A stretch of DNA of 64,000 nt, taken from Botryllus schlosseri. Taxonomy: Eukaryota. The position numbers and the translations under genes are program-made. The notes beneath the pieces are model-generated. The model made no database searches, was not told the DNA's origin, and was given only the letters and a program-made list of their open reading frames with translations. Below are positions 721-63,152 of this stretch, piece after piece. The stretch's first letter is position 1. Every line of letters begins with the position of its first letter. The stretch is taken from positions 6,264,001 through 6,328,000 of the forward strand of contig CM119371.1 in the NCBI GenBank assembly GCA_051294905.1. The letters run 5' to 3'.

Positions 721-3562
721 TGTCACAGATACACTACAAAAATAATAAGACATATTTGTTCTATGATCTTGAAGTGGCTTATTATTGCCAAATTGTTTTT
801 TTTCTATTTACAATTCGAACTGACAGCTCTATACATTTACTCATCTTGTATTTATCTTTCCTTTTCATTGCATTCAACTCTTTTGTTTACTTCTTTCTTA
901 CTGTTACTTTGTTATTGTTCTGGCTTACCACTGTACGACTTGTTTTTAATTTATCTCTTGACTCGAGACTCAACTTTACCAACACTTTTTTTCACTCAAA
1001 ACTGTCTGTCTGTCTTGAAGTAATTGACATACTGGTAACACTCCACCCTATCCATCCAATTGTATTTTCAGAGAGCTTCATACAGAAGAATGCCCTGGTC
1101 CAAGCAGCAACACCAAATAGAAGAAGACTTGCCTCTTGAAATAGTTGCGGATTTATTCTATCTTCTCGAACTTGGTGATATCTGACAAAAGATCTTGGCC
1201 AACTATTGATAAGCTTTCTGCCAGACCAAGACCTTAGCCACAATGCTATCTGGGACTTTCAAAGTATGGATTTTGGAATGGCAAGCTCAGCTGGTGAAGA
1301 AGACATCGGATCTTGGACACTGCGTTGTCTCACTGTAACCGATGTAGCAAATGAACAGTTGGTTCATGAGCGAGGATTTTAATATATATATTATACCAAT
1401 AATGTTGAAAATAGTAGAAAAATCACTCGTTTTACTATTGTGTCGTCAGACTGCTTAATCTTAAAGTATCTTATTTTGTCATTGCAAACTATTGTACAAT
1501 GGTTGTTCTAAAGCACGGGGGTGTGAAACTGAACTTGCGGCTGAAAATGATCGTAAACTGTGCGTTTTTATTACAAAGCAATTTGTTACCATTTACTTGT
1601 ACTTTGCTGTACAATTTATTTTGGGACGATGGCAAGCAGAGAAGAGGCACTTTGCAGTCTAGTATTCTTTTTCACCGTCCTAGTGTTAGAGCGATGGATG
1701 GATGGATGGATGTGAATTTACTAGCTTGGGAGATAGGAGAAAAGTCAAAATTATTTCGCAAATTTCTTGTTGGCAACCCTGGTGAATATTCTAAAATATC
1801 AATGGTGGATGGGGCTTGTTGGATGTGGGATATTTATAAGAGTCACATGATTCTGAATAATATTTTTACGGGTTCATATACATGTATTATACAGGGATAT
1901 GCGAATAATTTATAACCTGTCTTTGTTGACGTCCACTACCTCTAGGTTCACTGGCAAGGCAATCCTGTCTACGTCAGCGAAAGAACCTGAGTAAACCAAT
2001 AAACAATTCAGAAAATACAAGCTTCATACTCTTGATTACTGTGTAAAGTGTTCCTGTCATTTGTGAGACCGGAAGACTATGTTTGCAGCAGTTGAGTAGG
2101 CTACAAAGGCAAAAATACAGTTCCACGCTTGAGGCAACTGTAGTGAAGAGTTAGGATGGGGAATTTCGCTTGCAATGACATGAAATAACTGATCAGTAGT
2201 GTAGCAACAAGTTCAACTAAAATTTCGGGCCATCGCCTCATAGAAAACGAGAATAATTCGATCAATATGTTTCTATTGCCATAATGGGAAAATCAAAATA
2301 TACGCTACATTTTAGGATGGTAGGGAATTTTCCTACCAGTAAATCACGACATAAAAATGTGATTACATATTTCCAAGATTTACTGATGAAAACTTGATAT
2401 GGTACGGTAGAGTTCGACCATTGAGACGGACTCCATTTTAAAATGCAAGGATGCAATGGATGGCGATTTCATAATGCACCCACCAAGACCGTTAAATTAC
2501 ATCATCAGCAACTAATATTAATTGTATCCATGATTCAGAAAAAATGGATCCACTTTGATTGTCCTTCTGCGACAACGTTCACCTGACAAAGTGAGCTCTG
2601 TTTTGGCTACTAACAAAATCAGTAGCCTTGAAAAAAGTGACCTAGTGAGAATGTATTTTTCGGATATTGTTGGGCGTCCATGAAATGTAAAAATACCTCG
2701 ATAGAATTAATCAAGTGTTCTATTTGCATCTAGTTCGGGCACTGTCGTGCTTGGCTGGGGTTGCTTAACATCTAGCTTGCAAGCCACTGCGTCATCTATA
2801 ACGTTGAGATGCGGCTAATCCATCACATAGCTCTTTGTTATGCAAATCAAACAGAATATAACGAAACTAGATATAGTTTTATGGCATGTTTTTTAAATCA
2901 ATTCTTTACGCTTAGCACAAAACCTGATAAAAGTTTCAGTAATAAGTTGCAGTAAAAATAGAAAATACCTTCGAGTCACAAGTCAATTCGAGTAATTGCA
3001 CATTCGGGCCCCAGCCAAGTCACAATGTCATGTCAAATTTTCGATACATGATCAAACCCGTTGCATTTTGCGGGATGGATTTACAATAATTATGAATGGA
3101 GAAACAAATATCGAGTTGATTACACCTATAACAGGGTGTTGTAAGGCCTTTACATGTACACAGAACTATTAGACCAATTCGGTAACTGATATATTATGAA
3201 ACCTTGCAATGACATCATATCGTATATGTTGCAATCCACAATTCACCTACACATCCATGAATGCGAGTCAATTCAATCCAATCCAAGTATTTGAGACGAC
3301 GAGTCAGTTTTGCAAAGTGACTAAGTCATGTCATCGGACTGAGTCGTCCCAACACTGGTCATTACTAAACAAGGCTGCGGCACCTTCGTCCAAACTTACT
3401 CAATTGATATTAAATCGATAGCATCGTCACAGTCAAATGAATGCTGCCGTTTTTAAATAGCAAAGTTATCATGATACACATAAACCAGCCAAGCCAACCA
3501 CTATTACAATCGTCAAGTAGTGCACCATTAAATTACCACATCAATTAATGTATGATCAATTC

Positions 3563-3935
3563 TCAAGATGACCGCGAACATGCTGTCTCGTCGTCAGCAG
3601 ATAAAACTCCAAATTCGTCCGATGTACACGATGACGTCGTACTACTGACGTCATTCCTGTCTGTTTCGGATTCGGACTCAGTGGACTCGTAAGCGTAAGT
3701 CTTGGAGAAGCACGTCGTCGACGTCTTCCTGATCATGTTCTTCAATGCAACCTGCATCCTGCTGCGCTTTTTCTCCGTTTTGCTTCCGCTGGTGGCGGGT
3801 TTGGCTGGTGTGTTGTCGATTGCGACTTTGGTTTGAGATGCTGTCTCGCTCGTATAGAAACCCAGCTTGTGCAGATCGGAGAGCCAGCAATTGTACCGGT
3901 GGATACGCTGTAAGCTTTTTCCTTGCAGACCTAAA
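3563..3935 (-). CDS. Protease-like gene, exon 8 (terminal)
   Basis: Acceptor ttgtacag. (H)LGLQGKSLQRIHRYNCWLSDLHKLGF...ACSRSS*. Confidence 0.75.
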
Positions 3936-6900
3936 CTGTACAACAAAGTTTGATGATCAGCATGAGGTTACTTCTGACCAGGGTCAATCTGACTTTTATA
4001 GTGTTGACTCGAGTCAAGTCGAGTCATTTTCAATTCACCACCAAGTCCAAGTCAGCGAGCAGAGGAGTCACGGTATTATGACTCAAGTCCAAGTCATTGT
4101 GTTGACTGCTCAGTTTTCAGCAAAAGTCTTCTTAAACCCACTTTTTATAACTCTGTTTCGTGATATCGGATGGTTCGAATTTATAACATACTAATTTTCC
4201 TCATTTTCACAGTTTCTGATCGAATTTTCAAGTACTAGTACCAATAGACGAAATCCCAATAGTGTGGTTACTTTAGAATTCTTCAAAATGACCATGAAAT
4301 GTCTGTCTGAGTCTCGAGTCATATGATTGCATTCGAGTTATCCACAATGACTCGAGTCCAAGTCGAGTAAATTCACAGATTGAACTCTAGTCGAGTTCAG
4401 TCATTTCGGTATTTTGAGAAAATGACTCGAGTCATTACAACCCTGCTTCTAACTAGCATGGAACTTTTAAATGGGGTATAGACCCAGCCGACCTGCAATG
4501 AGGACCACTGTCTCTCCTGATCGCTCACCCTTTGCATTCAACCCGGTAAGAGAGGTCAAAGTATTCATGGTTGTTACTCGAGTGGAAGTAGTAACGCCGT
4601 GAATTTATACGACATACGCACTTGGGCTAGGCAAGAGCAAGCAGTCAAAGCTACTTTCAGTGCACCCAAAAGGTATAAGTAACCTACTTGTAACTGATAC
4701 AGTCCATCCTCAAGATTACCGGACCACGACTGACCTATCGATCTCGCTTCCAATGACATGCCGCCCTATTTCTTGTCGCTTTCTTTTTTCTATACTGTAT
4801 TCTTTACTTTCATTCAGTGTGCATGCCTCCTCTTTACTACGCCTAGGCCAAGGTGGGTGTCCGATTCCATTGACAAATCCAAGTCGCTTCGACATCTTCC
4901 TGTCTATTCATTGTATCGCATTTTTTGTGGTGTATTGAACTGATAAAATTGCTAATAAACCAATGATGATTACCTCTTCAAATACCAATAGTCCAAATGA
5001 CGATACTGGCGGAAGTGTTTACGAATAACAAGCTGATAGAGAGTATCCTGAACGGCAGAATGAATAGTTTCCAACTTACTGATAGATATGTCGTGCGAGT
5101 GCATCCGCTGTTACGTTTCTCACTAATCGAAAGTACACCCAATACCAGATCCACGTCTGGCACATGACGTCGTTCTTGTCCGTCTACAAAATAAAATAAC
5201 ATCTCTACATGCTCCGGAATATCGCTAAGTTGAAGTAATCACTTGAAAGTTGATGCCTTTGGCCGCCTGGAAGAATTTGATCGGACGTCCCAGCCGAGGA
5301 CTCAAATAATGATGCATCCACATACGGACTTCTTCAGAACCCCGTCGATCTCCGGATGGTCCTGCTGTGAATAAAACAACTCAACTTTATGATATGCTAT
5401 TCTTTCAAGAAGCGTACAACATATGCACAGCGGTATTCATCAACTATATAATTAATTATTGCCCCATGTAGAGTCTCTCACCAGTTAATATAACCGTCTA
5501 TGACATCAAACTATGCTTTATGATTGCAAGCATTCTGGTTGCTCTTTTATTAATTTTTTGATATTACGATAAGGGGGCACGAAAAAATATCATCAAGGGC
5601 GTCGTGTCTAAACAAGTTTGAGAACCACTGCATTAGTACTTTAGATCATCACATCTGCGAAGTATTAATGATTGTTCGGTTATGTCACATCAGACTCACA
5701 CTAGGTCATGCTCATCGAGTCATCCAATTATTGACTAATGCTGAACAATGCACCAATGCAGAGCCTCATTAGTCATTTTTGTTAGTCGTGATTATGCATC
5801 TTTCCATTTCGAAAGCAGCCACCTATTATTATTATTATACTGAGTCTGAGTACTGCGTATTGTTCAAGTCTTGCCAGCACCAATTACTGGAGCCACTCTT
5901 ATAACTCTGTTTGGTGAAATCAAATGGTTCGCATTTATAATATATATACTAATTTTCCTCACTTTTAACAGTTTCTGGTCGCATTTTCAAGTACCAGTAC
6001 CAACAGACGTAATCCCAATAGAGTGGTTACTTTACTGTTCGTCGAAAATACAATGAAATGTCGGTCTTGGCCGTCTGAATCTCGAGTCATTTGACTTGGT
6101 TCGAGTCATGCGCAATGACTCAAGTCCAAGTCGAGTCAATACACAAATTGACTCAAGTCGAGTCAAGTCATTTCCGTATTTTGAGAAAATGACTCGAGTC
6201 AAGTCTAGTCATTAAAAAATCGTGACTCGAGTCATTACAACCCTGCCACTTCCACATGGAATTGAGTTGATATGTAAAACGATAGAGCTGCTTGTACTTG
6301 GCCGACTACTTTGGACATCTCTGCATATGCATTACGGGGTTATAGATAGTAGTTACAGTAGGTATAGTTGAAGAAATGGTTAGCGCTTCAGCGTAGAGAT
6401 TATGTAGTGCCACATAAACGGATTTCTAAACGGAAAGGGAATATTTCAAAATTGATTTAATTCCGCCGACATCACAAAGTCGTGCTGTTTGAAAAGCTAA
6501 TTTTGTTGGAAAAGAGTAGGGTTTGTATTGTATGAACATGGAACAGCGATGATATTATGGAAAGTATGAGCTCACCAGGGTCGACATACTCCACGTAAAT
6601 ATGGGCAGGCGTTTCCTTGATGTACGCGACCGTTATATGCTGCGGGAGACCGATCAAGATGATTGTGTTCTGCGGAATACGAACGCATCATTGAGGTCGA
6701 AATTCAAACTTGATGTAATATCATGTACGCACTAAATAAAGTCTTCGCCGCCATCTCCCTGGCAGCAAAATACTCGCTGGTGCTATTTTCGGCCTGTACA
6801 CTCCATCGGAATCGGTGCTGAATCGAACATCGCAGTCTGGGCACGGATCCTCATCCAGTGGCTGTCAACAGAGCAATGGAGGTATAATCGGAAGCCAAAA

Positions 6901-9836
6901 ACTTTAACATGCTATATACTCAATAGAGGTGTTCAATAACAAAGTACTTTTGACTGCTAGCGGTAATCAAGTAGCATTTTTATGCTTTCATTACCAAATT
7001 GGTTATTCTTTCACACTACTTCCGATTCTACCTAACAGATCTTGACTCAAAAGAACTCATATTGTACCGGTTGCAATGACTCGAGTCACGTTATTTTGGT
7101 GACTCGACTTGACTCGAGCCATTTTTTCAACTACGGTAAATGACTCGACTCGAGTCAATTATTGTATTGACTTCACTTGACTTGACTTGTACGAGTGCAT
7201 GATTGGAACGAAGTCAAATGACTCAAGTCTAGGATGACCGACACATACATTTCATTGTAACTTCGAAGAATAGTAAAGTCACCACTAGGGCTGGGCACAA
7301 TGATTCGAGTACTTGAATCTGAATCGAGTATTAATTTTAATGATTTGAGTCGAGTAGCAAAAGAGGATTTTTTCGAGTACTGAAATTATACGCTCCTCGT
7401 AACTGAAAGTTAATTTACAACCGACAATTATAGTTTTGATACTATTTTCCACTGAGGAAGCCTTGAAACCTTGATTGGCTGTGTCGCAGCATAATAGACA
7501 TAGTACAAAGCTGCGAACGTTACTGAAAATAACACATTTCCGAAGTGATGATCGTTCCACAACATTGTCAAGAAGTGCAATGAAGTCGGTATATGGTCGA
7601 AAAAATACCGAATTATCATTAATGTGATGGGTTACAGGCATTATTTTCTTCGTTGGTGGCATAAAATGTACATATTTGAACTTTGACATGGTACATTATG
7701 TTGTGACGTCATAATGAGTGATACTCGAATACTCGACTCGAAGCATTTTACGTGATTCAGAATCGAATCACTCAGGTACTCGATTTTGCCCAGACCTAGT
7801 CACCACATGATTGGTATTTCGTTTATCAGTAGTCAGTACTGATACTTGGAAAATAGGACCAGAAAGTGTTTAGACTGAGCAAAATTACGATATTATGAAT
7901 GCGAGCTATTCTATATCATTCGAGCAGAGTTGAAAACATAAACACTGGGTTGAACCAAATTGAACTGAAAATGAGCAGTGAACATAATGACTCGGACTCG
8001 AGTCTAAAGACTATGACTCGACCTTTTACTAGCTGACTTGACTTGGGGGTGAATTGAAAATGACTCACCTTGACTCGAGTCAATACTATAAAAATTAGAT
8101 TGACTTTTGACCCTGTTTTTTACAATTGCACATTGGCCCCCCCTTATCGTCATATCACAAAATGAAAGCAGAATGCTAGCAATCCCATTGGATAGTTCGA
8201 CGGGACAGAAGCTGATGACTGTTGATGAGAATTCTCAAATATGAAATTCGGACTGTACACAGATAATTACCTATGAATTGGGGGTAAATTGCACACGGCG
8301 CGAAAAAATTTCAGCTGACTGCAGTTTCGTGCCACCCTTCAGATGCTTTCACGCCGCCCAGTTTGAGAACCACTGATCTACAATGTTCTTTTCAATTCTC
8401 TACTATTTTATATTATGCAATTGTATATTGAAGTTCTGTACCTCCAAGAGTGTCTCAGATAATTGACTCCAATAGAAATACGAAGAAACAGGGAAATCAA
8501 ACAATAATGTTGCACTGTAACTGACCTTATCATACATAACCTTCCACTTGGGATGCTTCCACAAGTCATAGTTGATGCACGGGGGTAAAACTGATACATT
8601 CACCGAATGTGAGTCCATGAATCGCTTCATTATGCAGTTGGTGTGGTATTGCATCAGACGCCATTTCTCATACAGTGATATCGACCGACCTGTCCAGGAA
8701 AAGTATACATTTCTCAACCCACAACGACCATAAATTATATCCGTCAGGAGACTAATCGTCTATATTTATATATATATCACTTTTTGGAAGTACTCAAGTA
8801 GGTTTGCCTACTTTCGCTATTAACTCAAGTGGTGATGTTTCATACTACCTTCACTACTAAGACTACAGATATATACTTTTTTAAACAGAACTATTCTTTT
8901 ACACTCCAAACTCGGTAAAGTAGAACGTAGCTTTGGGACGTGCTTGCATCAAAGACAGATGGTCATAGGAACTGGTTGAAATAGCCCGTGTATTACAGTA
9001 TCTAAATATATTTGCTAAAATTGCACCTATTTCTAGTGTCATTAGGATTTTATGTGATAATCCTGACGATATATCTTGCAATTTCAAAAGTAGTTACCTC
9101 CAATTCAATGCTAAATTTGTACGACCCCTTGATAAAATCTACTGTTTTGAAACTGCTTAATTCAGTACTCTTCAGATCTTTCAAATTCTACTCCCACTTG
9201 AAGTAGTTTAGACATGTCCTAAGAGTAACGACTTCTATGCTTGTGTAGAAAATTATGGCGTTCATCCAACTTCTACTTGAGTACTGACGCTGACTACTCC
9301 CACCACATCTCAATGCCAAATCTACCAAGGAATATCATATGTTTTCATTTGGAAGCATTGCATTCAAGTTATAGAATATAAATGTAGATTAGCCTATTGG
9401 CACACATAACATAGGCTTACCTCCAGCTGCTTTTAGTTTAGCTCTTCGTGGAATGAAATGACGATTTCCCGGCGGCAAATGAACGCTACCATAATCGCCA
9501 TAGGTAGCCTTCCCATCTAAGTCAAACCTGAAAAATATAGCATGAAAAGCATGTTGAAATAATTCTTACCTCTGCATAGGCCTATTGATGCTATATCTCC
9601 CTTTTACTGACACACCAGACAAATCAGAACACACGACGGTTTATCGCTTACCTCGGCTCGATGACATATTCATTTATTCTTGACGATGTAGACGTCTCTT
9701 GACAATCGTGAATGCCAGTAGAACAAGACGGCCTATCACAATCACTGACTCTGCAGTAACGGCCTATTCGCTTGGAGCTGTCTATGTTATCGCACGACAC
9801 ATCTTGACGGAGTTTTCCCTTGAACATTAAATTCAT
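3563..9836 (-). CDS. 8-exon gene, ~425 aa, putative clan CE-like (Ulp1/adenain/viral-type) cysteine protease with Ser/Thr/acidic C-terminal tail
   Basis: Exons 9836-9652, 9527-9421, 8689-8526, 6861-6733, 6669-6576, 5364-5243, 5183-5080, 3935-3563 (1278 nt). All 7 introns are GT-AG with matching phases (2,1,0,0,1,0,2) and there is no internal stop. Motifs LPQH..EYVDPAG..INFQTDKNDVMCQTWIWY. Start codon uncertain; protease call is inference. Confidence 0.8.
3980..4445 (-). mobile_element. GACTCGAGTC-rich hAT-type MITE, partial copy
   Basis: Reverse-complement similarity to 49514-50074; ends ...cattacaaccctg. Further copies at ~5890-6245, 7068-8115, 27503-27903, 48775-48867. Confidence 0.75.
4698..4971 (+). 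mobile_element. LINE 3' end fragment (family of 60890-63152)
   Basis: Near-identical to 62871-63140, including the ctaataaaccaatgatgat tail. Confidence 0.9.
5080..5183 (-). CDS. Protease-like gene, exon 7 (putative catalytic Cys)
   Basis: ttttgtag/gtaagt boundaries. TDKNDVMCQTWIWYWVYFRLVRNVTADALARHIY. Confidence 0.8.
5243..5364 (-). CDS. Protease-like gene, exon 6
   Basis: ttcacag/gtgatt boundaries, followed by a 59-nt intron. GPSGDRRG...KGINFQ. Confidence 0.75.
6576..6669 (-). CDS. Protease-like gene, exon 5 (putative catalytic His and Asp)
   Basis: ttccgcag/gtgagc boundaries. NTIILIGLPQHITVAYIKETPAHIYVEYVDP. Confidence 0.8.
6733..6861 (-). CDS. Protease-like gene, exon 4
   Basis: ttgacag/gtgcgt boundaries, followed by a 63-nt intron. 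PLDEDPCPDC...RRRLYL. Confidence 0.75.
7286..7798. mobile_element. 513-bp hAT-type MITE nested in a GACTCGAGTC MITE
   Basis: TIR TAGG(G/T)CTGGGCA. TSD GTCACCAC at 7278-7285 and 7799-7806. Partial copy at ~33900-33998. Confidence 0.85.
8526..8689 (-). CDS. Protease-like gene, exon 3
   Basis: ttttcctggacag/gtcagt boundaries. RSISLYEKWRLMQYH...KVMYDK. Confidence 0.75.
9421..9527 (-). CDS. Protease-like gene, exon 2
   Basis: tttttcag/gtaagc boundaries. FDLDGKATYGDYG...KLKAAG. Confidence 0.75.
9652..9836 (-). CDS. Protease-like gene, first coding exon (start uncertain)
   Basis: Donor gag/gtaagc in phase 2 matches exon 2. First ATG after the in-frame TAG at 9872-9870. Confidence 0.55.
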
Positions 9837-11847
9837 CTCATTGGGCCCTAACCTATCATGTGGAAACAACTAACGACCTAGCCCGGCTTCATGTGCTATC
9901 GCGTTGGTGGCGCTTGTAATGAGAGATTGCGTTGGCGAAAAATATTTTTGGACATGCATTATTACGTCACAGTTGCTGGTCTGAACAAAATATCGTGATG
10001 AACAGCTGTTGACGATGCGTACTATTTTTTCATCAGTAGTCAATTTGCTGGTGGAATGACTGCATTTGATTGTCGTGCAGCATTGATTCATATCCACATA
10101 ACTAATTCAGACTACTTTCATATACTACGTATAACAGATCTGCCTTTATCCATGGCCGTGACCTAGTAAAAGCCAAAGTCACTCAACTATGACTTTGGTA
10201 AGAGCTGCGCGCCAGACTTGATGTCAATCAACTATCATCATCATCATCATCACCATTGGTTTATTAGCAATTTTATCAGTTCAATACACCACAAAAAATG
10301 CGATACAATGAATAGACAGGAAGATGTCGAAGCGACTTGGATTTGTCAATGGAATCTGACACCCACCTTGGCCTAGGCGATGTAAAGAGGAGGCATGCAC
10401 ACTGAATGAAAGTAAAGAAGATAGTATAGAAGAAGAATGCGACAAGAAATAGGGCGGCATGTCATGGGAAGCGAGATCGATCATCACCATTGGTTTATTA
10501 GCAATTTTATCAGTTCAATACACCACAAAAAATGCGATACAATGAATAGACAGGAAGATGTCGAAGCGACTTGGATTTGTCAATGGAATCTGACACCCAC
10601 CTTGGCCTAGGCGTAGTAAAGAGGAGGCATGCACACTGAATGAAAGTAAAGAATACAGTATAGAAAAAGAAAGCGACAAGAAATAGGGCGGCATGTCATG
10701 GGAAGCGAGATCGATAGGTCAGTCGTGGTCCGGTAATCTTGAGGATGGACTGTATTCAGCCTGATTTGATACCGGTACTTGGAAAATAGGACCTGAAATT
10801 CTTTAGACTGAGGAAAATTATTATTTTGTATTTAGTATTTAGTATTAGTGTATTTTGGTTCGATGAAAATAAAGACTCTCTCTCTCTGGAAAATAGGACC
10901 TGAAATTCTTTTCGGTCGATCATATGATATTTGGACGACGTGGACGCGCGTGTGTTGTACTCAGGGCTGTGAAGTCGGTAAATTTTACCACCGACTCCGG
11001 CTCCGACTCCGACTCCACACATTTTCAATATACCGACTCCGACTCCGACTCCGACTCCTGGGTCTTTAAACGTACCGACTCCGACTCCAGCATTATTAAC
11101 AATTTACTTCGAAAATTATATGCCACATTGTCGGTTGAATGACTATCATACAACCATTAAACATATGCAAACATATGATTAACTGTGGTATGCTAAATTG
11201 TTTCATTGTGGCACAGCTCGAATTATCCAATTACCATGAAATAAAGATTTGGTAAATATCCTTCCTTATTCAAGTTTTTATAACATGGACTCTCTAATAT
11301 CCTGAAATGTATGAATCATTCAAATATGGCAGATATCCAATCCTGTATAATAAAAATATAGATAAAAAATCCAAGGGTATAGCTCTTGTGTATGAGTCAG
11401 CAACTAATAAAGCGATTGAACTTACTAATTTTGTCATTGCACACTATCCTGATTACAAGCACACACACTCTTACTAATAATAGACATTGGTCATTAATGG
11501 AATTTAATTAAGTAGTCAAAGACCATAGCCTATGTCTAGTCTACATGTACTTAATCAAGTATTCAAGGATTGGGACTTGCAGTCTTTCTTAATCATTTGT
11601 TCACCCAAACAGCTAAGCTACACTACAAATATTTTTAATTTTGACAAGTGGGAAGCACCGTTTGGTCATATTTACATCATTTTTACAATTTTACAAAACC
11701 AGCCGATGCATTTTCTCTGTCACAGTATCATGGTATCATTCCAAAAATTGCATCAATTTTGACTACATCGCGAAAACACATCTTGCGATTTTCTTCCTCT
11801 CTGCAACTGAATTGTAATTTGCAAGTTATATCTAATTTTATCTATAT

Positions 11848-15708: not shown

Positions 15709-15940
15709 GATTCGTGGTACAAAAAAAAATTCTATTGAAAATTCTTTGAAAGCAAATGTTTTCATGATGGAGAAGTTGGAGTCGGAGTCGAAGTCATTGT
15801 CATTCTCACAAACTCCGACTACGACTCCAGTCAGTATTTTCCCACCGACTCCGACTCCGACTCCAGCTATTATAGTTTTCGCGACTCCGACTCCATCAAG
15901 CGAAAATTACCCCGACTCCGACTCCGACTCCACAGCCCTG

Positions 15941-16880
15941 GTTGTACTTGTGCGCTTTTGATTCAGAGGTAAAGAAGTCATTGAAATATTCGGGGCAACG
16001 ACCGCAGTGAAACTGATACATAAACTTGGCGATTTCTAGTTTCCGCATATCTTCTATGTTTAGGACGCCAAATCTCTTCAGCAGCGACTTATTGGATGGG
16101 CAGCCAGGCCCCTTTGGAGCCCTAGCTATGATTCGGAGTACTTTATGCTGTAGTTTCTGCAGTGGCTTGAGTGCAGTTTTACTGGCAGCCCCCCAACAGA
16201 GGATGCCATAATGTAACTTCGATTGGATTAAGGATTTAAAGAGTATCAGAAGAACCCATGCTGGCACGAAGCGCCCAAGGCTGTAGAACAGGCCGCACTT
16301 CGGTGATAATTTAGTTTCTAGGGACTGAATATGACTCTTCCAGGACATGTTCGAGTCCAGTAAAACTCCGAGATATTTGGCATTATCTGTGTTGGAAACG
16401 GGCTGACCAGCGATATTAACGGTTAGGTTATTTTTTGAATTTACTGTCAGCAATTGCGATTTCGAGGCGTTTATGCAAAGGTTGTTCTGGGCCGTCCACT
16501 CATGGACTTTGGGCATTTGGTCACCAGTCAGGGCATCCAGCTCTGCCGTCGAAGATGCGGAAGAGAGGAGGTGAGTATCATCAGCGAACAGTGTGGTGTT
16601 CAATGAGGAGGTTTCAAAAATGTCGTTGACATATAAGGTGAAAAGGACCGGTCCAAGTACTGAGCCCTGGGGCACACCACAGGTCACCGGGTGAGGAGAG
16701 GACAAGGTGTCTGAGATCGCAACCATTTGTTGGCGTCCAGTGAGGTAACTTTTCATGAGCTCAAGTTGTGGGCCCCGAAGTCCGTAACGCGCCAATTTCG
16801 AGATGAGAATTTTATGATCTACGCAGTCAAACGCTTTTTTTAGGTCGAGAAAAATGCTACATCCCACATTTCGCTTCTCT
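15941..16880 (-). pseudogene. Reverse transcriptase fragment of LINE ORF2
   Basis: FLDLKKAFDCVDH, GVPQGSVLGP, LFADDT and YLGVLLD motifs; truncated at both ends. Confidence 0.9.
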
Positions 16881-17159
16881 ACTGTTTTTTATAGTAATTC
16901 TGGTTCTAGTTTTGCAAAGTGAGTAGTTAGAGTTAGAGTTTCGCATTTAAAAGAGAAATTAATTGCCAAGGAATTAAAATAGCCGTGTCGTCGTTTGGCG
17001 CGAATCGTGATACCGATGAATTGCTGTGTGATGTTCGGGCTTATTTATTATATTTTGTTTCTGTCTCCACGACTTGTAAATTTATTGAATCAACGTACGG
17101 CGACGTAACGGTTCTTGCGAATCGTGAAATTGAATTGAATGAATAGGCTACGTTGTATT

Positions 17160-54647: not shown

Positions 54648-57600
54648 GAGGAAGGTTGGTTCGATTGGTTTGAAATAAGGACAGATTTGTTTGAAATGAG
54701 GAGAGTCTCATGTTTGAAATGAGGATAGTCATGTCAGAAATAAGGATAGTCATGTTTGAAATAAGGATAGTCGCTATATTCACTATAAAGTCAGTTACAG
54801 TACCAGGCACGACGTCCCAGAGGTAACCCAGTCCGAACACATCCCAGACATGATGTCCGAACACGCCCCAGACACGATGTCCTAGCGTCAACACAGTCCT
54901 AACACACCCCAGACATGATGTCCGAACTCGCCCCAGACCCGATGTCCGATTGGCAGCACAGGCCGAACACACCCCAGACATGATGTTCAAACACGCGCCA
55001 GACACGATGTACCAGTGTCAATACAGGCCCAACACGCCCAAGACACCATGTATGAATGGCAACACAGACCGAACACGCCCCAGACACGATGTCCGAGTGT
55101 CAACTCAGATCCGAAAACAACCCAGACACCATGCTTGAATGGCCGAACATGCCCCAGACACGATGTCCGATTGGCAGCACAGGCCGAACACACCCCAGAC
55201 GTGATGTCCAAACACGCCCCAGATACGTTGTCCGGGTATCAACATAGGCCGAACACACCCAAGACATCATGTCCGAATGGCAACACAGGCCGAACATACC
55301 CCAGACATGATGTCCAAACACGCCCCAGACACGATGTCCGAGTATCAACACAGGCCGAACACGCCTAAGACACCATGTCCGAATGACAATACAGACCGAA
55401 CACGCCCCAGACACGATATCCGAGTGTCAACTCAGTCCGAACACAACCCAGACACCATGTTTGAATGGCCGAACACGCCCCAGACACGATGTCCGATTGG
55501 CAGCACAGGCCGAACACACCCCAGACGTGATGTCCAAACACGCCCCAGATACGTTGTCCGGGTATCAACACAGGCCGAACACACCCAAGACATCATGTCC
55601 GAATGGCAACACAGGCCGAACATACCCCAGACATGATGTCCAAACACGCCCCAGAAACGATGTCCGAGTATCAACACAGGCCGAACACGCCCAAGACACC
55701 ATGTCCGAATGACAATACAGACCGAACACGCCCCAGACACGATATCCGAGTGTCAACTCAGTCCGAACACAACCCAGACACCATGTTTGAATGGCCGAAC
55801 ACGCCCCAGACACGATGTCCGATTGGCAGCACAGGCCGAACTCACCCCAGACGTGATGTCCAAACACGCCCCAGATACGTTGTCCGGGTATCAACACAGG
55901 CCGAACACACCCAAGACATCATGTCCGAATGGCAACACAGGCCGAACATACCCCAGACATGATGTCCAAACACGCCCCAGAAACGATGTCCGAGTATCAA
56001 CACAGGCCGAACACGCCCAAGACACCATGTCCGAATGACAATACAGACCGAACACGCCTCAGACACGATATCCGAGTGTCAACTCAGTCCGAACACAACC
56101 CAGACACCATGTTTGAATGGCCGAACACGCCCCAGACACGATGTCCGATTGGCAGCACAGGCCGAACACACCCCTGACATGATGTCCAAACACGCGCCAG
56201 ACACGATGTCCGAGTGTCAACACAGGCCGACACGCCCCAGACATAATGTCTGAATGGCAGCACATGCCGAACACAACCAAGACATGATGTCGGAACACGC
56301 CCCAGACACGATGTGCGATTGGCAACACAGTCCCAACACCCCCCCCTCCAGACACGATGTTAATAAGGTTGGTCATGTTTGAAATAAGGTCAGTCTCGTG
56401 TTTGAAATAAGGATAGTCATGTTAGAAATGAGGATAGTCATGTTTGATATAAGGATAATCATGTTTGAAATAAGGTTAGTCTCATGTTTGAAATGAGGAT
56501 AGTCATGTTAGAAATGAGGATAGTCATGTTTGAAATAAAGATAGTCGCTATATATTCACTATGAGGTCAGTTGTAGTACCAGGCACGATTTCCCAGTGGT
56601 AACCCAGTCCGAACACATCCCAGATCCAGTCCAAACACATCCCAGACATGATGCCCGAACTCGCCGCAGACACAATGTCCGAGTGTCAACTCAGTCCGAA
56701 CACAACCCAGACACCATGTTTGAATGGCCGATCTCGACCCAGACATGATATCCGAACACGCGCCAGACACGATGTCCGAGTATCAACACAGGCCGAACAT
56801 GCCCAAGACACCATGTCCGAATGACAACACAGACCGAACACGCCCCAAACACGATGTCTGATTGGCAACACAGGCCGAACACACCCCGGACATGATGTCC
56901 GAACACGCTCCAGACACGATGTCCGAGTGTCAACACAGGCCTAACACGCCCAAGACACCATGTCTGAATGGCAACACAGACCGAACACGCCCCAGACACG
57001 ATGTCCGATGAGTGTCAACTCAGTGCGAACACAACCCAGACACCATGTTTGAATGGCCGATCTCACCCCTGACATAATGTCCGACCACGCACCAGACACG
57101 CCGAAGACACCATGTCCGAATGACAACACAGACCGAACACGCCCCAGACACGATGTCTGATTGGCAACACAGGCCGAACAAACCCCGGACATGATGTCCG
57201 AACACGCTTCAGACACGATGTCCGAGTGTCAAGACAGGCCTAACACGCCCAAGACACCATGTCTGAATGGCAACACAGACCGAGCACGCCCCAGACACAA
57301 TGTCCGAGTGTCAACTCAGTCCGAACACAACCCAGATACCATGTTTGAATGGCCGAACACGCCCCAGACACGATGTCCGATTGGCAGCACAGGCCGAACA
57401 CACCCCAGACATGATGTCCAAACACGCCCCAGATACGTTGTCCGGGTATCAATACAGGCCGAACACACCCAAGACATCATGTCCGAATGGCAACACAGGC
57501 CGAACATACCCCAGACATGATGTCTGATTGGCAACACAGGCCGAACACACCCCGGACATGATGTCCGAACACGCTTCAGACACGATGTCCGAGTATCAAC

Positions 57601-60093
57601 ACAGGCCGAACACGCCCAAGACACCATGTCCGAACGGCAACACAGACCGAACACGCCCCAGACACCATGTTTGAATGGCAATAGCACAGGCCGAACACGC
57701 CCCAGACATGATGTCCGAACTCGCCGCAGACACGATGTCCGAGTGTCAACACAGGCCGACACGCCCCAGACATAATGTCTGAATGGCAGCACAGGCCGAA
57801 CACAACCCAGACATGATGTCGGAACACGGCCCAGACGCACTCACATGGTGTCGACTCCTACAGACTACAGAGAAATATGCACGACAACGCATGATCTTGA
57901 GATTTTTTCTAGCTAGCATTCATGAATATTCTTGTTTGCAATACATTTGATTACATTCCAAAACATACTTGTGCTTTATTGCTTGCGACACGTAAAAATG
58001 AGGTAAAATGTGCATTATGGCTGTATTAAGTAAGTTCAACCTTATAAATTTGCGACACAAGATAGCGAAGTTATTGGGGCGTGTTCGGTTTGTGTTGCCA
58101 TTCGGACATGGTGCCTTCGGCGTGTTCGGCCTGTGTTGATACTCGGACATCGTGTCTGGCGCGTGTTCGGACATCATGTCTGGGGTGTGTTCGGCCATTC
58201 AAACATGGTGTCTGGTTTGTGTTCAGACTGAGATGACACTCGGACACCGTATCTGGGGCGTGTTCGGTCTGTGTTGCCATTCAGCATGGTGTCTTGGGCG
58301 TGTTAGGCCTGTCTTGACATGCACTCGGACATCGTGTCTGGGGAGTGTTCGGACATCTTGTTTGGGGGGTGTTCGGCCTGTGCTGCCATTCAGACATGGT
58401 GTCTTGGGCGTGTTCGGCCTGTGTTGACACTCGGACATTGTGTCTGAGGCGTGTTCGGACATCACGTCTGGGGTGTGTTCGGCCTGTGTTGACACTAGGA
58501 ATCGTGTCTGGGGCGTGTTCGAACATCATGTTTGAGGTGTGTTCGGCATGTGCTGCCATCCGGACATGGTGTCTTGGGCGTGTTCGGCCTGCGTTGATAC
58601 CCGGACATCGTGTCTGGGGCGTGTTTGGACATCATGTCTGGGGTGTGTTCGGCCTGTGCTGCCAATCGGATATCGTGTCTGGGGAGTGTTCGGACATCAT
58701 GTCTGGGGTATGTTAGGACTGTGTTGACGCTAGGACATCGTGTCTGGGGCGTGTTCGGACATCATGTCTGGGATGTGTTCGGACTGGGTTACCACTGGGA
58801 AGTCGTGCCTGGTACTGCAACTGACTTTATAGTGAATATAGCGACTATCCTTATTTCAAACATGACTATCCTTATTTCTAACATGACTATCCTCATTTCA
58901 AACATGAGACTAACCTTATTTCAAACATGACTATCCTTATATCAAACATGACTATCCTCATTTCTAACATGACTATCCTTATTTCAAACACGAGACTGAC
59001 CTTATTTCAAACATGACCAACCTTATTAACATCGTGTCTGAAGGGGGGGGAGGGGTGTTGGGACTGTGTTGCCAATCACACATCGTGTCTGGGGCGTGTT
59101 CCGACATCATGTCTGGGTTGTGTTCGGCATGTGCTGCCATTCAGACATTATGTCTGGGGCGTGTCGGCCTGTGTTGACACTCGGACATTGTGTCTGCGGC
59201 GAGTTCGGACATCATGTCTGGGGTGTGTTCGGCCTGTGCTGCCAATCGGACATCGTGTCTGGGGCGTGTTCGGTCCGTGTTGCCATTCGGACATGGTGTC
59301 TTGGGCGTGTTTGGACATCATGTCTGGGGTATGTTAGGACTGTGTTGACGCTAGGACATCGTGTCTGGGGCGTGTTCGGACATCATGTCTGGGGTGTGTT
59401 CGGCCTGTGCTGCCAATCGGACATCGTGTCTGGGCCATGTTCAGCCATTCGAACATGGTATCTGGGTTGTGTTCGGTCTGAGTTGACACTCGGACATTGT
59501 GTCTGGGGCGTGCCCGGTCTGTGTTGCCATTCACACATGGTGTCTTGGGCGTGTTAGGCCTGTATTGACACTAGGACATCGTGTCTGGCGCGTGTTTGGA
59601 CATCATGTCAGGGGTGTGTTCGGCCTGTGCTGCCAATCGAACATCGTGTCTGGGGCATGTTCGGCCATTCAAACATGGTGTCTGGGTTGTTTTCGGATCT
59701 GAGTTGACACTAGGACATCGTGTCTGGGGCGTGTTCGGTCTGTGTTGCCATTCAGAAATGGTGTCTTGGGCGTGTTAGGCCTGTATTGACACTCGTACAT
59801 CGTGTCTGGCACGTGTTTGAACATCATGTCTGGGGTATGTTAGGACTGTGTTGACGCTAGGACATCGTGTCTGGGGCGTGTTCGGACATCATGTCTGGGA
59901 TGTGTTCGGACTGGGTTACCACTGGGAAGTCGTGCCTGGTACTGCAACTGACTTTATAGTGAATACAGCGACTATCCTTATTTCAAACATGACTATCCTT
60001 ATTTCTGACATGACTATCCTCATTTCAAACATGAGACTCTCCGAATTTCAAACAAATTTGACCTTATTTCAAACCAATCGAACCAACCCTGTA
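54648..60093 (+). mobile_element. 5.4-kb foldback-type DNA transposon B with satellite arms (MULE-like, 9-bp TSD)
   Basis: TSD GATCGAAAG at 54639-54647 and 60094-60102. Ends GAGGA-AGGTTGGTTCGATTGG...CCAATCGAACCAACC-CTGTA. Inverted arms 54651-57836 and 58075-60089 around a ~240-bp spacer. Confidence 0.92.
54830..59930. repeat. Modular CCGAACACGCCCCAGACACGATGT satellite with 326-bp higher-order repeat, inverted about 57837-58074
   Basis: Near-identical blocks begin at 55277, 55603 and 55929. 21-23-bp (tgtttgaaataaggatagtca) arrays at ~54665-54775, 56375-56545, 58845-59015, 59970-60075. Confidence 0.92.
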
Positions 60094-60437: not shown

Positions 60438-60889
60438 TCATTTCAATATGAATATACTATTTAATTGTAGATTTGAATGTCTGAACAATAACTGAGAATT
60501 AAATTATCACAAGTGAATCCATAAATTACAGCGTAAAAGATATTGGAATGTCAGCAACTCTTTACGGTCATAGTTACTACCACATTAACTAATTTACCCG
60601 GCCAACTCGTCATGATCATTCCTGAAATCAACACAAACATGACCACTGACTTGAGTTAACCATAAAACAGCATCAAGTTTTAAATCCGCTTGTAGCTGAC
60701 GGATTATTTGAATGCATCGATAGAGAATATTGTTGAACTCGTGAGTATTCTATTTCAATGAACTTTCGTTTTTTATACCGACTGCGAAAGTTAATATCGA
60801 ATCGTAAGACTTGAAACAAATCACATATTTGTTTGATGATAACACAGACATGACAAAAAACATTACCGAGATTTTATAAACTAGTCACC

Positions 60890-63152
60890 TCTACGGCGCC
60901 TTTCGAGAAGTCAAAGAAAATTGAAGCGAAATCCGTGGATGACCACAAAGCTGATTCAACTTATTCGTAAACGTAATCGATGGCATAACCGATTAGACAC
61001 CAAGAACTGCCCAGAACATGAACGAGAAAGATTTCGACGTTTCAGGAATCGCACCGTGCATCTCATTTCCAAGGCAAAAGCAAAGTACAATGAGAGATTT
61101 TTCAACAGACACATAAAGGACACTCGAAAAACATGGTCAGGACTTAACTCTCTCCTACATCGGAAAAAAGGCCATAAGTCTGTTTCGGAAATTGTGAATT
61201 CGGATACCGGAAACAAACTTTCAGACCCGGCGGCCATCGCGAATCACTTCAATGAATATTTTTGTAACGTAGGCCCAAATATTGCTTCTTCTATTACAAA
61301 ACCTGTGTCGGCCAGGTCAGAGGTGAGATCGATATCCCAGTCAATTGTGCTTGAACCTACGACCAAATACGAAGTAGAAGTAGCCATCCACAAACTGAAA
61401 TCGCACAAGGCCGACGGCTATGACCAAATCCCATCATGGTTTCTAAAAATGATAAGCCTGCATATCGGTCAATATATGGCCCATTTTTTCAACTTCATGA
61501 TAGAAAATGGAGTCTACCCAAGCTATCTAAAAAAAGCCAGAGTAGTCCCTGTACACAAAGCTGGGGATAGAACTAATGTCACCAACTACCGTCCGATATC
61601 CGTTCTCCCATGCATCGGGGTTGTATTCGAAAAGTTGCTCCTCTCCCGCCTGTCCTCATTCCTCGCCAAAATGTCTGTCATTTCCCCTCAACAATTTGGC
61701 TTCCGAAACAAACACCAAACCGCACATGCCCTCCTAACAGTGGCCGAACAGTATTATGATATCTCAGAGAAGCGAAATGTGGGATGTAGCATTTTTCTCG
61801 ATCTAAAAAAAGCGTTTGACTGCGTAGATCATAAAATTCTCATCTCGAAATTGGCGCGTTACGGACTTCGGGGCCCACAACTTGAGCTCATGAAAAGTTA
61901 CCTCACTGGACGCCAACAAATGGTTGCGATCTCAGACACCTTGTCCTCTCCTCACCTGGTGACCTGTGGTGTGCCCCAAGGCTCAGTACTTGGACCCGTC
62001 CTTTTCACCTTATATGTCAACGACATTTTTGAAACCTCCTCATTGAACACCACACTGTTCGCTGATGATACTCACCTCCTCTCTTCCGCATCTTCGACGG
62101 CAGAGCTGGATGCCCTGACTGGTGACCAAATGCCCAAAGTCCATGAGTGGACGGCCCAGAACAACCTTTGCATAAACGCGTCGAAATCGCAATTGCTGAC
62201 AGTGAATTCAAAAAATAACCTAACCGTTAATATCGCTGGTCAGCCCGTTTCCAACACAGATAATGCCAAATATCTCGGGGTTTTACTGGACTCGAACATG
62301 TCCTGGAAGAGTCATACTCAGTCCCTAGAAACTAAATTATCACCGAAGTGCGGCCTGTTCTACAGCCTTAGGCGCTTCATGCCAGCATGGGTTCTTCTGA
62401 TACTCTTTAAATCCTTAATCCAATCGAAGTTACACTATGGCATCCTCTGTTGGGGGGCTGCCAGTAAAACTGCACTCAAGCCACTGCAAAAACTACAACA
62501 TAAAGTACTCCGAATCATAGCTAGGGCCCCAAAGGGGCCTGGCTGCCCATCCAACAAGTCGCTGCTGAAGAGATTCGGCGTCCTAAACATAGACGATATG
62601 CGGAAACTAGAAATCGCCAAGTTTATGTATCAGTTCCACTGCGGTCGTTGCCCCGAATATTTCAATGACTTCTTTACCTCGGAATCAAAAGCGCACAAGT
62701 ACAACACACGCGCGTCCACGTCGTCAAAATATCATATGATCGACCGAAAAGATCATCGCTCTATCAAATATGCCGGACCTGATGTGTGGAACAGTATCCC
62801 GCCGGCCATCCGACAGTCGACGAGCATGTCCACATTCAAGTCGAAATACAAGCAATTACTACTAAGTAAATACAGTCCATCCTCAAGATTACCGGACCTC
62901 GGCTGACCTATCGATCTCGCTTCCCATGACATGCCGCCCTATTTCTTGTCGCTTTCTTTTTTCTATACTATCTTCTTTACTTTCATTCAGTGTGCATGCC
63001 TCTTTACATCGCCTAGGCCAAGGTGGGTGTCAGATTCCATAGACTACTCCTTGTCGCTTCGACATCTTCCTGTCTTTTCATTGTATCGCATTTTTTGTGG
63101 TGTATTGAACTGATAAAATTGCTAATAAACCAATGATGATGATGATGATGAT
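60890..63152 (+). mobile_element. 5'-truncated CR1/L2-group LINE with (TGA)n tail
   Basis: RT ORF, ~225-nt 3' UTR, AATAAA, then tgatgatga... to 63152. No TSD seen; 5' boundary approximate. Confidence 0.92.
60921..62906 (+). CDS. LINE ORF2 reverse transcriptase (APE endonuclease missing), 661 aa open frame
   Basis: PWMT, KADGYDQI, NYRPISVL, QQFGFR, FLDLKKAFD, GVPQGSVLGP, LFADD, YLGV motifs. Starts at TTG with no true initiator. Confidence 0.9.
   Translation: MKRNPWMTTKLIQLIRKRNRWHNRLDTKNCPEHERERFRRFRNRTVHLISKAKAKYNERFFNRHIKDTRKTWSGLNSLLHRKKGHKSVSEIVNSDTGNKLSDPAAIANHFNEYFCNVGPNIASSITKPVSARSEVRSISQSIVLEPTTKYEVEVAIHKLKSHKADGYDQIPSWFLKMISLHIGQYMAHFFNFMIENGVYPSYLKKARVVPVHKAGDRTNVTNYRPISVLPCIGVVFEKLLLSRLSSFLAKMSVISPQQFGFRNKHQTAHALLTVAEQYYDISEKRNVGCSIFLDLKKAFDCVDHKILISKLARYGLRGPQLELMKSYLTGRQQMVAISDTLSSPHLVTCGVPQGSVLGPVLFTLYVNDIFETSSLNTTLFADDTHLLSSASSTAELDALTGDQMPKVHEWTAQNNLCINASKSQLLTVNSKNNLTVNIAGQPVSNTDNAKYLGVLLDSNMSWKSHTQSLETKLSPKCGLFYSLRRFMPAWVLLILFKSLIQSKLHYGILCWGAASKTALKPLQKLQHKVLRIIARAPKGPGCPSNKSLLKRFGVLNIDDMRKLEIAKFMYQFHCGRCPEYFNDFFTSESKAHKYNTRASTSSKYHMIDRKDHRSIKYAGPDVWNSIPPAIRQSTSMSTFKSKYKQLLLSKYSPSSRLPDLG

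Follow-up and report, generated by a model that had tools for sequence, protein, structure and literature searches.

The gene described here lies at positions 9836..3563 on the minus strand of a 64-kb stretch of Botryllus schlosseri DNA (GCA_051294905.1, contig CM119371.1, positions 6,264,001 to 6,328,000; hereafter the window). It is spliced and expressed and, taken as a whole, the evidence makes it likely that this is an eight-exon tunicate host gene for a cysteine protease of clan CE, the clan of the Ulp1/adenain fold. That evidence comes from transcripts that cross every intron, from relatives that keep the putative catalytic residues at low sequence identity, and from the structure model of a close relative, which retrieves clan CE enzymes.

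Ubiquitin, SUMO and NEDD8 signalling is under the control of clan CE proteases, which also mature several large DNA viruses. On our reading, the locus defines a clan CE branch that standard domain models overlook; it shows strong conservation within a chordate subphylum and also occurs in protists and giant viruses. The Ciona orthologue, together with good genetics, offers a tractable entry to the role of a large giant-virus family, and could show whether tunicates possess a ubiquitin-like-modifier (Ubl)-type protease missing from other animals on record.

Gene structure and expression

Joining the eight exons by coordinates gives 1278 nt, that is 425 codons and a stop, with 0 internal stops. 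The seven introns (124, 731, 1664, 63, 1211, 59 and 1144 nt) all have GT..AG ends, and the ATG at 9836 is preceded by an in-frame stop at 9872-9870 (both read on the minus strand). The first-pass annotation, made from the sequence alone, had proposed eight minus-strand exons, seven GT-AG introns (two of 59 and 63 nt) and a stop-free frame of about 425 residues; coordinate joining reproduces this. The codons it gave for a His, an Asp, a Gln and a Cys are also exact, and encode H206, D225, Q267 and C275. It had further called the gene hidden. This is true of the open reading frame track, where the opposite strand carries the sole stop-to-stop frame of at least 150 aa that overlaps the gene (3733..4194, plus) and the exons lie in open stretches of 35-134 aa across three frames. 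It is not true of the databases, in which Ciona and Clavelina orthologues are already filed as uncharacterized proteins.

Expression was examined in contigs of three sequencing runs whose RNA nature is guessed (X1, X3 and X15) and in raw RNA reads of a fourth (X21, about 6% of the run read). Sequencing runs from one organism contain about one-fifth of the words of the 64-kb stretch, the share expected from exons alone. A single 1723-nt contig, X3 record 15, lies on 3300-3935, 5080-5183, 5243-5364, 6733-6861, 8526-8687, 9419-9525 and 9650-9905 with consecutive record coordinates, and its 94 unlisted letters are exon 5. The features of the gene, in the order of transcription, are as follows.

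9837..9905 (at least to 9905), minus strand: 5' untranslated part of exon 1; X3 record 15 extends to 9905
9652..9836, minus strand: exon 1 coding part, aa 1-62; junction from X3 record 15 and X15 loose ends at 9529 and 9650
9421..9527, minus strand: exon 2, aa 62-98 (FDLDG..PPGNRHFIPRRAKLKAAG); joined frame, alignment of relatives and transcript contig
8526..8689, minus strand: exon 3, aa 98-152, long conserved helix (SISLYEKWRLMQY..) to ..KWKVMYDK; joint 6861>8526 in three runs
6733..6861, minus strand: exon 4, aa 153-195 (PLDEDPCPDCDVRF..KIAPASIL); joined frame, relatives and transcript contig
6576..6669, minus strand: exon 5, aa 196-227, with His206, Glu222 and Asp225; joints 5364>6576 and 6669>6733
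5243..5364, minus strand: exon 6, aa 227-267, last residue Gln267 (5245-5243); joined frame, transcripts and relatives
5080..5183, minus strand: exon 7, aa 268-302, with Asp272, the nucleophile candidate Cys275 (5162-5160) and Arg286; joined frame and relatives
3563..3935, minus strand: exon 8 coding part, aa 302-425 and stop; joined frame and alignment of relatives
3300..3562, minus strand: 3' untranslated region, running on below 3300; X3 record 15 has 113 letters past 3300 and X15 record 7 covers 3309-3831

All seven junctions are present in X3 record 15. Five are also tabled as joints with CT..AC ends (GT..AG on the minus strand), each in one to three contig runs: 3935>5080, 5183>5243, 5364>6576, 6669>6733 and 6861>8526. 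For the remaining two, X3 record 15 is joined by X15 loose ends at 8691, 9419, 9529 and 9650 that read into the neighbouring exon. In X21, three raw RNA reads cross the joint 5364>6576, and exon coverage comes solely from pairs with the first mate on the plus strand, which fits a minus-strand RNA in the usual stranded library. An upstream GT at 8540, considered as the exon 3 donor (giving a 420-aa product), was ruled out: transcripts use 8526, and the relatives have the five extra residues. Among the 12 exonic differences listed between the window and the transcript contigs (from a longer set with 58 further differences), 11 are synonymous and one changes a residue in the variable tail. That the locus is a genuine gene is as good as certain.

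The Cys-rich, variable N-terminus encoded by exon 1 begins MNL, where relatives begin MNW, MNK or MNR. In exon 5 the codons of interest are His206 (6639-6637), Glu222 (6591-6589) and Asp225 (6582-6580). Exon 8 encodes the final helices of the domain and then a tail predicted to be disordered, which carries a basic patch (KKRSRMQ..K) and ends acidic and rich in Ser.

Tunicate relatives

Exon 3 alone, used as a query, retrieved seven longer proteins at 80-96% identity. The spliced protein aligns with these seven relatives (394-429 aa) end to end at 59-74% identity, collinear and gap-free across every exon junction. Named sources of close relatives are Ciona savignyi (H2Z8I1), Ciona intestinalis (F6YSY4, partial) and Clavelina lepadiformis; the remaining close relatives, on contigs of 1.4-1.9 kb, are presumably transcripts. 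The Clavelina entry (P0006, 244 aa) diverges after ..VEYVDP, exactly where exons 5 and 6 of the window gene meet, and its final residues are unrelated. This point of departure suggests that the two genes share an intron position, and P0006 is likely a truncated model because the Clavelina annotation probably read into that intron. The relatives thus carry a warning for annotation, being filed as 'uncharacterized protein', with one of them truncated at an intron.

The wider family is large. Searching 1.84 billion representatives with the tunicate profile, HMMER recovered 83 proteins at E ≤ 1e-3, of which 14 were at E ≤ 1e-30; a word-seeded profile search gave 64. Three tunicates supply the only organism names among these matches, which otherwise comprise marine records, two gene models from EukProt and a single 'hypothetical protein' from NCBI. 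Our full-text literature search found no paper on this protease family in tunicates.

Candidate active-site residues

An alignment of 20 sequences, falling to 21% identity, has only nine invariant columns: H195, E211, D214, Q256, D261, C264, T266, I268 and R275, in the numbering of P0001, the closest relative usable for modelling. Their equivalents in the window protein are H206, E222, D225, Q267, D272, C275, T277, I279 and R286. The first-pass annotation had proposed conservation of His, Asp and Cys in relatives as a check, and all three are invariant in 20 of 20 divergent relatives. His, Glu, Asp, Gln and Cys are likewise invariant in 15 of 15 sequences of a second set that includes viral rows. 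The order along the chain is the conserved His, acid, Gln, Cys of clan CE. Motif scan and profile homology agree on family membership, through the shared motifs H-[IV], E-x-[FV]-D, Q and D-[VIL]-x-C-[QHN]-T-[WY]-I. Two conserved N-terminal elements, W-R-x-M-Q and DPxPDxDV[KR]F, are specific to the family.

Predicted fold

The model of P0001, computed with the family alignment as input, has a mean predicted local distance difference test score (pLDDT) of 74.3, with 174 residues at 90 or above and both ends disordered. Between residues 90 and 330 most 10-residue blocks average 85-97, with a dip to 66 at 131-150; the equivalent of the exon 8 tail falls below 50. DSSP assigns a strand at 195-203 that H195 opens, a strand at 208-213 followed by D214, and a helix at 264-277 that C264 opens. 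A helix opened by Cys, with His and an acid on strands, is the layout of papain-like and CE enzymes. The model has this layout, with the Cys at the helix N-terminus and the His and acid on adjacent strands, within an alpha/beta fold of the Ulp1/adenain type.

Only clan CE enzymes head two independent structure searches with this model. In Foldseek against PDB the matches are clan CE enzymes only, with pS273R of African swine fever virus (ASFV) at the top (E 6.8e-4), followed by a de-sumoylating protease, PopP2, AvrA, ChlaDUB1, SseL, SnCE1, Ulp1, SENP5/7/3, OtDUB, the monkeypox core protease and NEDP1. Together with the invariant H, D, Q and C, this bears out the clan CE assignment made at first pass, and a clan CE fold for the window protein is, judged from its relative's model, very probable.

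Giant-virus and protist-like homologues

The first-pass annotation had also noted a likeness to giant-virus proteins, and three approaches sustain it. With hhalign, three viral-side proteins (from two IMG/VR contigs and one relative) match the tunicate-only profile at 94.6% probability and E 7e-8 over 86 columns, from the His to the Cys helix; the viral homologues are about 26% identical to the tunicate protein over about 100 residues. All 18 BFVD matches to the P0001 model at E ≤ 1e-3 are giant-virus proteins. The best are from Yasminevirus (2.5e-7) and Fadolivirus (4.0e-7; A0A7D3UNY0; 207 aa; template-modelling (TM) score 0.58 on the target; 20% identity); Moumouvirus, Tunisvirus, Orpheovirus and CroV are also present, and annotated ASFV S273R and 'Ulp1 protease' entries come lower. 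The nearest ESM Atlas clusters, which serve as leads only, are Nucleocytoviricota hypothetical proteins (0.92-0.94), followed by C48/ElaD, YopJ, C57 and C5 clusters. One report describes Ulp1-like proteases as widespread in Nucleocytoviricota (PMC11915834).

Pattern scans of IMG/VR located viral family members directly. With the family alignment, 1 of 32 candidate stretches was confirmed, and this lay on a contig of 8.7 kb from a giant-virus bin. A further scan, guided by the viral sequence, confirmed 2 of 9, on the same contig and on a 37.9-kb viral contig. The bin, which holds P0118, comprises 524 kb in 39 contigs and has a second, more distant copy within a 650-aa frame. A viral scan with P0118 alone recovered only its own contig, and a word-based homologue search only P0118 itself and P0119; the viral counts from pattern scans are therefore lower bounds.

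In metagenomes, 18 of 217 candidates were confirmed. Thirteen of these loci were profiled for composition and open reading frame density, and nine had neighbours run through Pfam. Two loci of GC 0.50-0.54 both have a metallo-beta-lactamase/tRNase Z-like neighbour, with a split Glu/Gln-tRNA synthetase beside one of them, and look like compact cellular genome. Eight have GC 0.23-0.31 and dense open reading frames. In four of these eight the neighbours include Erv1/Alr, thymidylate synthase, dCMP deaminase, MazG, a DNA methylase, a NIF phosphatase and a RING finger; these AT-rich, densely coding loci look like giant-virus DNA. With homologues at both kinds of locus, the family therefore lives in both cells and giant viruses. 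It is common to tunicates, marine eukaryotes, protist-like cells and giant viruses, and has no Pfam model.

RING finger genes stand near two family members. On the 37.9-kb viral contig (L004 2609-4267) the family member comes directly after a RING-H2 finger gene, and on a 32-kb AT-rich metagenome contig (L021 9476-10456 and 16350-16754) a RING finger gene is about 6 kb away. This arrangement is a weak hint that the family may be linked to ubiquitin-type ligation.

Proposed mechanism

We propose that a CE protease domain at about aa 55-345 would lie between the variable N-terminus and the disordered tail, basic and then acidic. Cys275, opening a helix, would be the nucleophile, and His206, opening a beta-strand, would act as general base. 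The acid that orients His206, located on the following strand or directly behind it, would be Asp225 or else Glu222, which is no less invariant, and Gln267 would help to build the oxyanion hole. By analogy with studied structural relatives, cleavage would most likely fall after a small-residue C-terminal tail of the Gly-Gly type, and our leading guess at the reaction is removal or maturation of a ubiquitin-like modifier. From the invariant residues and the modelled fold, the protein is probably an active protease; that it is directed at ubiquitin-like modifiers is, on the strength of analogy, an evenly balanced proposition.

Several observations weigh against this interpretation. The structure model is that of P0001, 74% identical to the window protein, and not that of the window protein itself. 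The Foldseek E-values against PDB are weak (6.8e-4 and worse), with query-normalized TM scores of 0.16-0.31. Two invariant acids, Glu222 and Asp225, compete for the third position of the triad. Of the four runs, three are only guessed to be RNA, and the one certain RNA run gave three junction reads.

Domain models add to these points. At the cut-off no Pfam model, and so none from clan CE, matches the eight exon pieces, six tunicate proteins or 18 distant relatives. For Peptidase_C48 (PF02902, gathering score 20.7 bits) the counts reaching the cut-off are 0/8, 0/6 and 0/18; its best echo, in the distant relative P0072, is below it (16.0 bits, E 0.011, over the His-Asp stretch). PF02902 also has no match in the viral P0118 or in the 524-kb giant-virus bin. 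Peptidase_C57 (PF03290) gives an echo in P0049 only (13.9 bits against a cut-off of 24.5, E 0.023), and PF00770 gives no match in the exon pieces, tunicate proteins, distant relatives or P0118. Among PDB sequences the tunicate profile finds 0 chains at E ≤ 10, and no CE chain is found with either profile.

The few other matches are best set aside. Those of exon 4 to FixH (E 0.042) and Zn-C2H2_12 (E 0.11) are at chance level, and those of full-length relatives to Pns11_12, NADH_B2, DUF325 and similar models are noise, all below cut-off. The sole PDB chain for the 20-sequence profile is the CBFA2T2 NHR2 helix (9k22, E 0.015). It covers the long N-terminal helix, the equivalent of window aa 95-150 (..YEKWRLMQY.TNCIMK..), and is probably a chance helix-helix match; we treat it so because the same helix belongs to the CE domain in the structural alignments.

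The motifs around the active site are also unusual. SENP enzymes have a His-Trp dipeptide and a Gln-x(5)-Cys-Gly, or QQxNxxDCG-type, motif. The window protein reads QHITVAY and FQTDKNDVMCQTW at these places: Ile and not Trp follows the His, the Gln-Cys spacing is 8, and the QQxNxxDCG-type motif is missing. This too counts against a clan CE reading, and with the absence of a C48 match at cut-off it upholds the first-pass view that the protein is not a canonical SENP.

Alternative explanations

The protein might instead be an active CE protease that is a specific processing enzyme, cutting internal Gly-Gly-X or Ala-Gly-X sites as adenain, poxvirus I7 and ASFV pS273R do on virion precursors. In the second structure search, however, Ubl proteases from bacteria and eukaryotes reach equally high or higher scores (ChlaDUB2 11.9, SnCE1 11.8, SseL 11.6, Ulp1 10.5), the gene is an ascidian-conserved host gene without a known virion to mature, and the neighbouring part of the window encodes no candidate substrate. 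We consider this alternative rather unlikely.

The protein might also be a YopJ-like acetyltransferase, or a dual protease/acetyltransferase like ChlaDUB1, using the same His-acid-Cys centre with acetyl-CoA. However, the YopJ-family rows of the second search are about 3 Z units below the proteases, and Acetyltransf_14 (PF03421, YopJ) has no match at E ≤ 10 in the tunicate proteins or at E ≤ 1 in the distant relatives. The protein also keeps an invariant Gln 8 residues before the Cys, and a Gln upstream of the Cys is the oxyanion signature of clan CE proteases. An acetyltransferase is accordingly very unlikely.

A catalytically dead CE fold, serving as a Ubl-binding scaffold or decoy, would be compatible with the unusual motifs around His and Cys. 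But the His, both acids, the Gln and the Cys do not vary even where identity falls to 21%, as expected of a working active site, and we find this alternative more doubtful still.

Finally, relatives on giant-virus contigs, retroelement frames in the window and introns full of repeats might point to a gene that is not the host's own, brought in by a recent insertion of giant-virus DNA or carried by a transposon, or to contamination of the assembly, but the chance of this is negligible given seven spliceosomal introns used in transcripts, 59-74% identical orthologues in at least three named tunicate species of two orders, the intron position that Clavelina seems to share, the 11:1 synonymous ratio of the listed exonic variants and the low identity of the viral homologues.

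Phylogeny and origin

The first-pass annotation had suggested a domesticated viral-type protease. Homology to giant-virus proteins stands; nesting within them is not seen in the unrooted trees. Our trees (44 and 38 rows) are quick IQ-TREE runs with SH-aLRT support only, unrooted and with midpoint rooting for drawing, and they raised several long-branch warnings. The ascidian rows form one clade with two marine-eukaryote clades of the same full-length architecture (support 99), and a long branch divides this clade from the protist-like and viral-like rows. No viral clade encloses the tunicate clade, and the viral-like rows are long and deep. The two sister clades may be other animals. Viral domestication is possible but not established, because protist-like cellular homologues exist besides the giant-virus ones.

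The named animal carriers are limited to tunicates, which fits a transfer into the tunicate stem and equally fits old descent with wide loss. Tunicates are known to keep horizontally acquired genes, cellulose synthase being an example. A bolder scenario is that the tunicate stem acquired the protease from, or exchanged it with, a giant virus, that the gene gained introns, and that it now encodes a lineage-restricted Ubl-type protease with a specificity unlike all SENPs and deubiquitinases, possibly acting against giant-virus infection or co-opted from it. In its favour, the three tunicates are the only named cellular carriers among the 64 profile matches, the closest neighbours in structure and in features are giant-virus proteins, and viral-like rows occupy the deepest branches. 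Against it are the protist-like cellular homologues, the unrooted tree with its long branches, and sister clades that could be other animals. We regard this scenario as speculative and unlikely.

Comparison with known systems

The protein belongs to a further branch, a Pfam-invisible family, within the well-known clan CE. From Ulp1, SENP and NEDP1 (MEROPS C48, PF02902) the family differs in having no cut-off match among the 24 full-length proteins scanned, in its Ile for Trp after the His and its Gln-Cys spacing of 8, in a helix that starts CQTWIWYW in place of DCG, and in its own N-terminal elements. ChlaDUB1/2, SseL/ElaD, SnCE1, RickCE and OtDUB are 7-12% identical in structural alignments with the relative's model, and no profile-level sequence link to them was obtained; these bacterial effectors are secreted proteins with other accessory regions, unlike the window protein. 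ASFV pS273R (C63), poxvirus I7/OPG083 (C57) and adenain (C5) are structurally alike, without a Pfam match at cut-off; they are virion-associated and cut viral precursors, whereas the window gene is a spliced host gene.

The giant-virus family (P0118, P0119, P0159, the homologues on AT-rich contigs and BFVD entries such as Fadolivirus A0A7D3UNY0) has the same H, E-x-F-D, Q and D-x-x-C-Q-T-W-I motifs. Unlike the tunicate protein, its members have no introns and a reduced N-terminal part, and they are either smaller, at 215-327 aa, or joined to further domains. The YopJ-family acetyltransferases (C55) have lower structural scores than the proteases; the window family keeps the Gln before the Cys, and no regulatory inositol hexakisphosphate (IP6)-binding subdomain is evident in its matches.

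Surrounding DNA

Introns 3, 5 and 7 hold interspersed repeats rich in GACTCGAGTC-like words, at 3983-4383, 5963-6242, 7069-7286 and 8040-8104. Direct copies are found at 4204-4383 and 5963-6151 (82-85%), and inverted copies at 6022-6242 and 7069-7286 (75-79%) and at 3983-4047 and 8040-8104 (91%). They appear to belong to a very high-copy element family, possibly similar to miniature inverted-repeat transposable elements, because summed contig depth reaches tens of thousands. Intron 7 also contains a unit of about 270 nt (4697-4970) with sharp loose ends on both sides and an X21 RNA depth of about 50-107 on both strands, far above the host exons; this is probably a dispersed repeat that is transcribed. 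Between 3300 and 10100, this unit included, neither the Rfam nor the tRNA scan gave a match.

Farther along the window, 54650-60090 (GC 0.51) has GC and AT skews that change sign at about 58 kb. It contains repeat arrays with 326-nt spacing and arms 83-98% complementary; as the arrays stand in opposite, complementary orientations, it is a satellite palindrome. Pfam gives no match for the open frames of 171-174 aa that lie within it. Reverse-transcriptase frames (RVT_1), the remains or copies of retroelements, are at 15896-16888 (minus, E 9.4e-25) and 60885-62906 (plus, E 7.8e-35).

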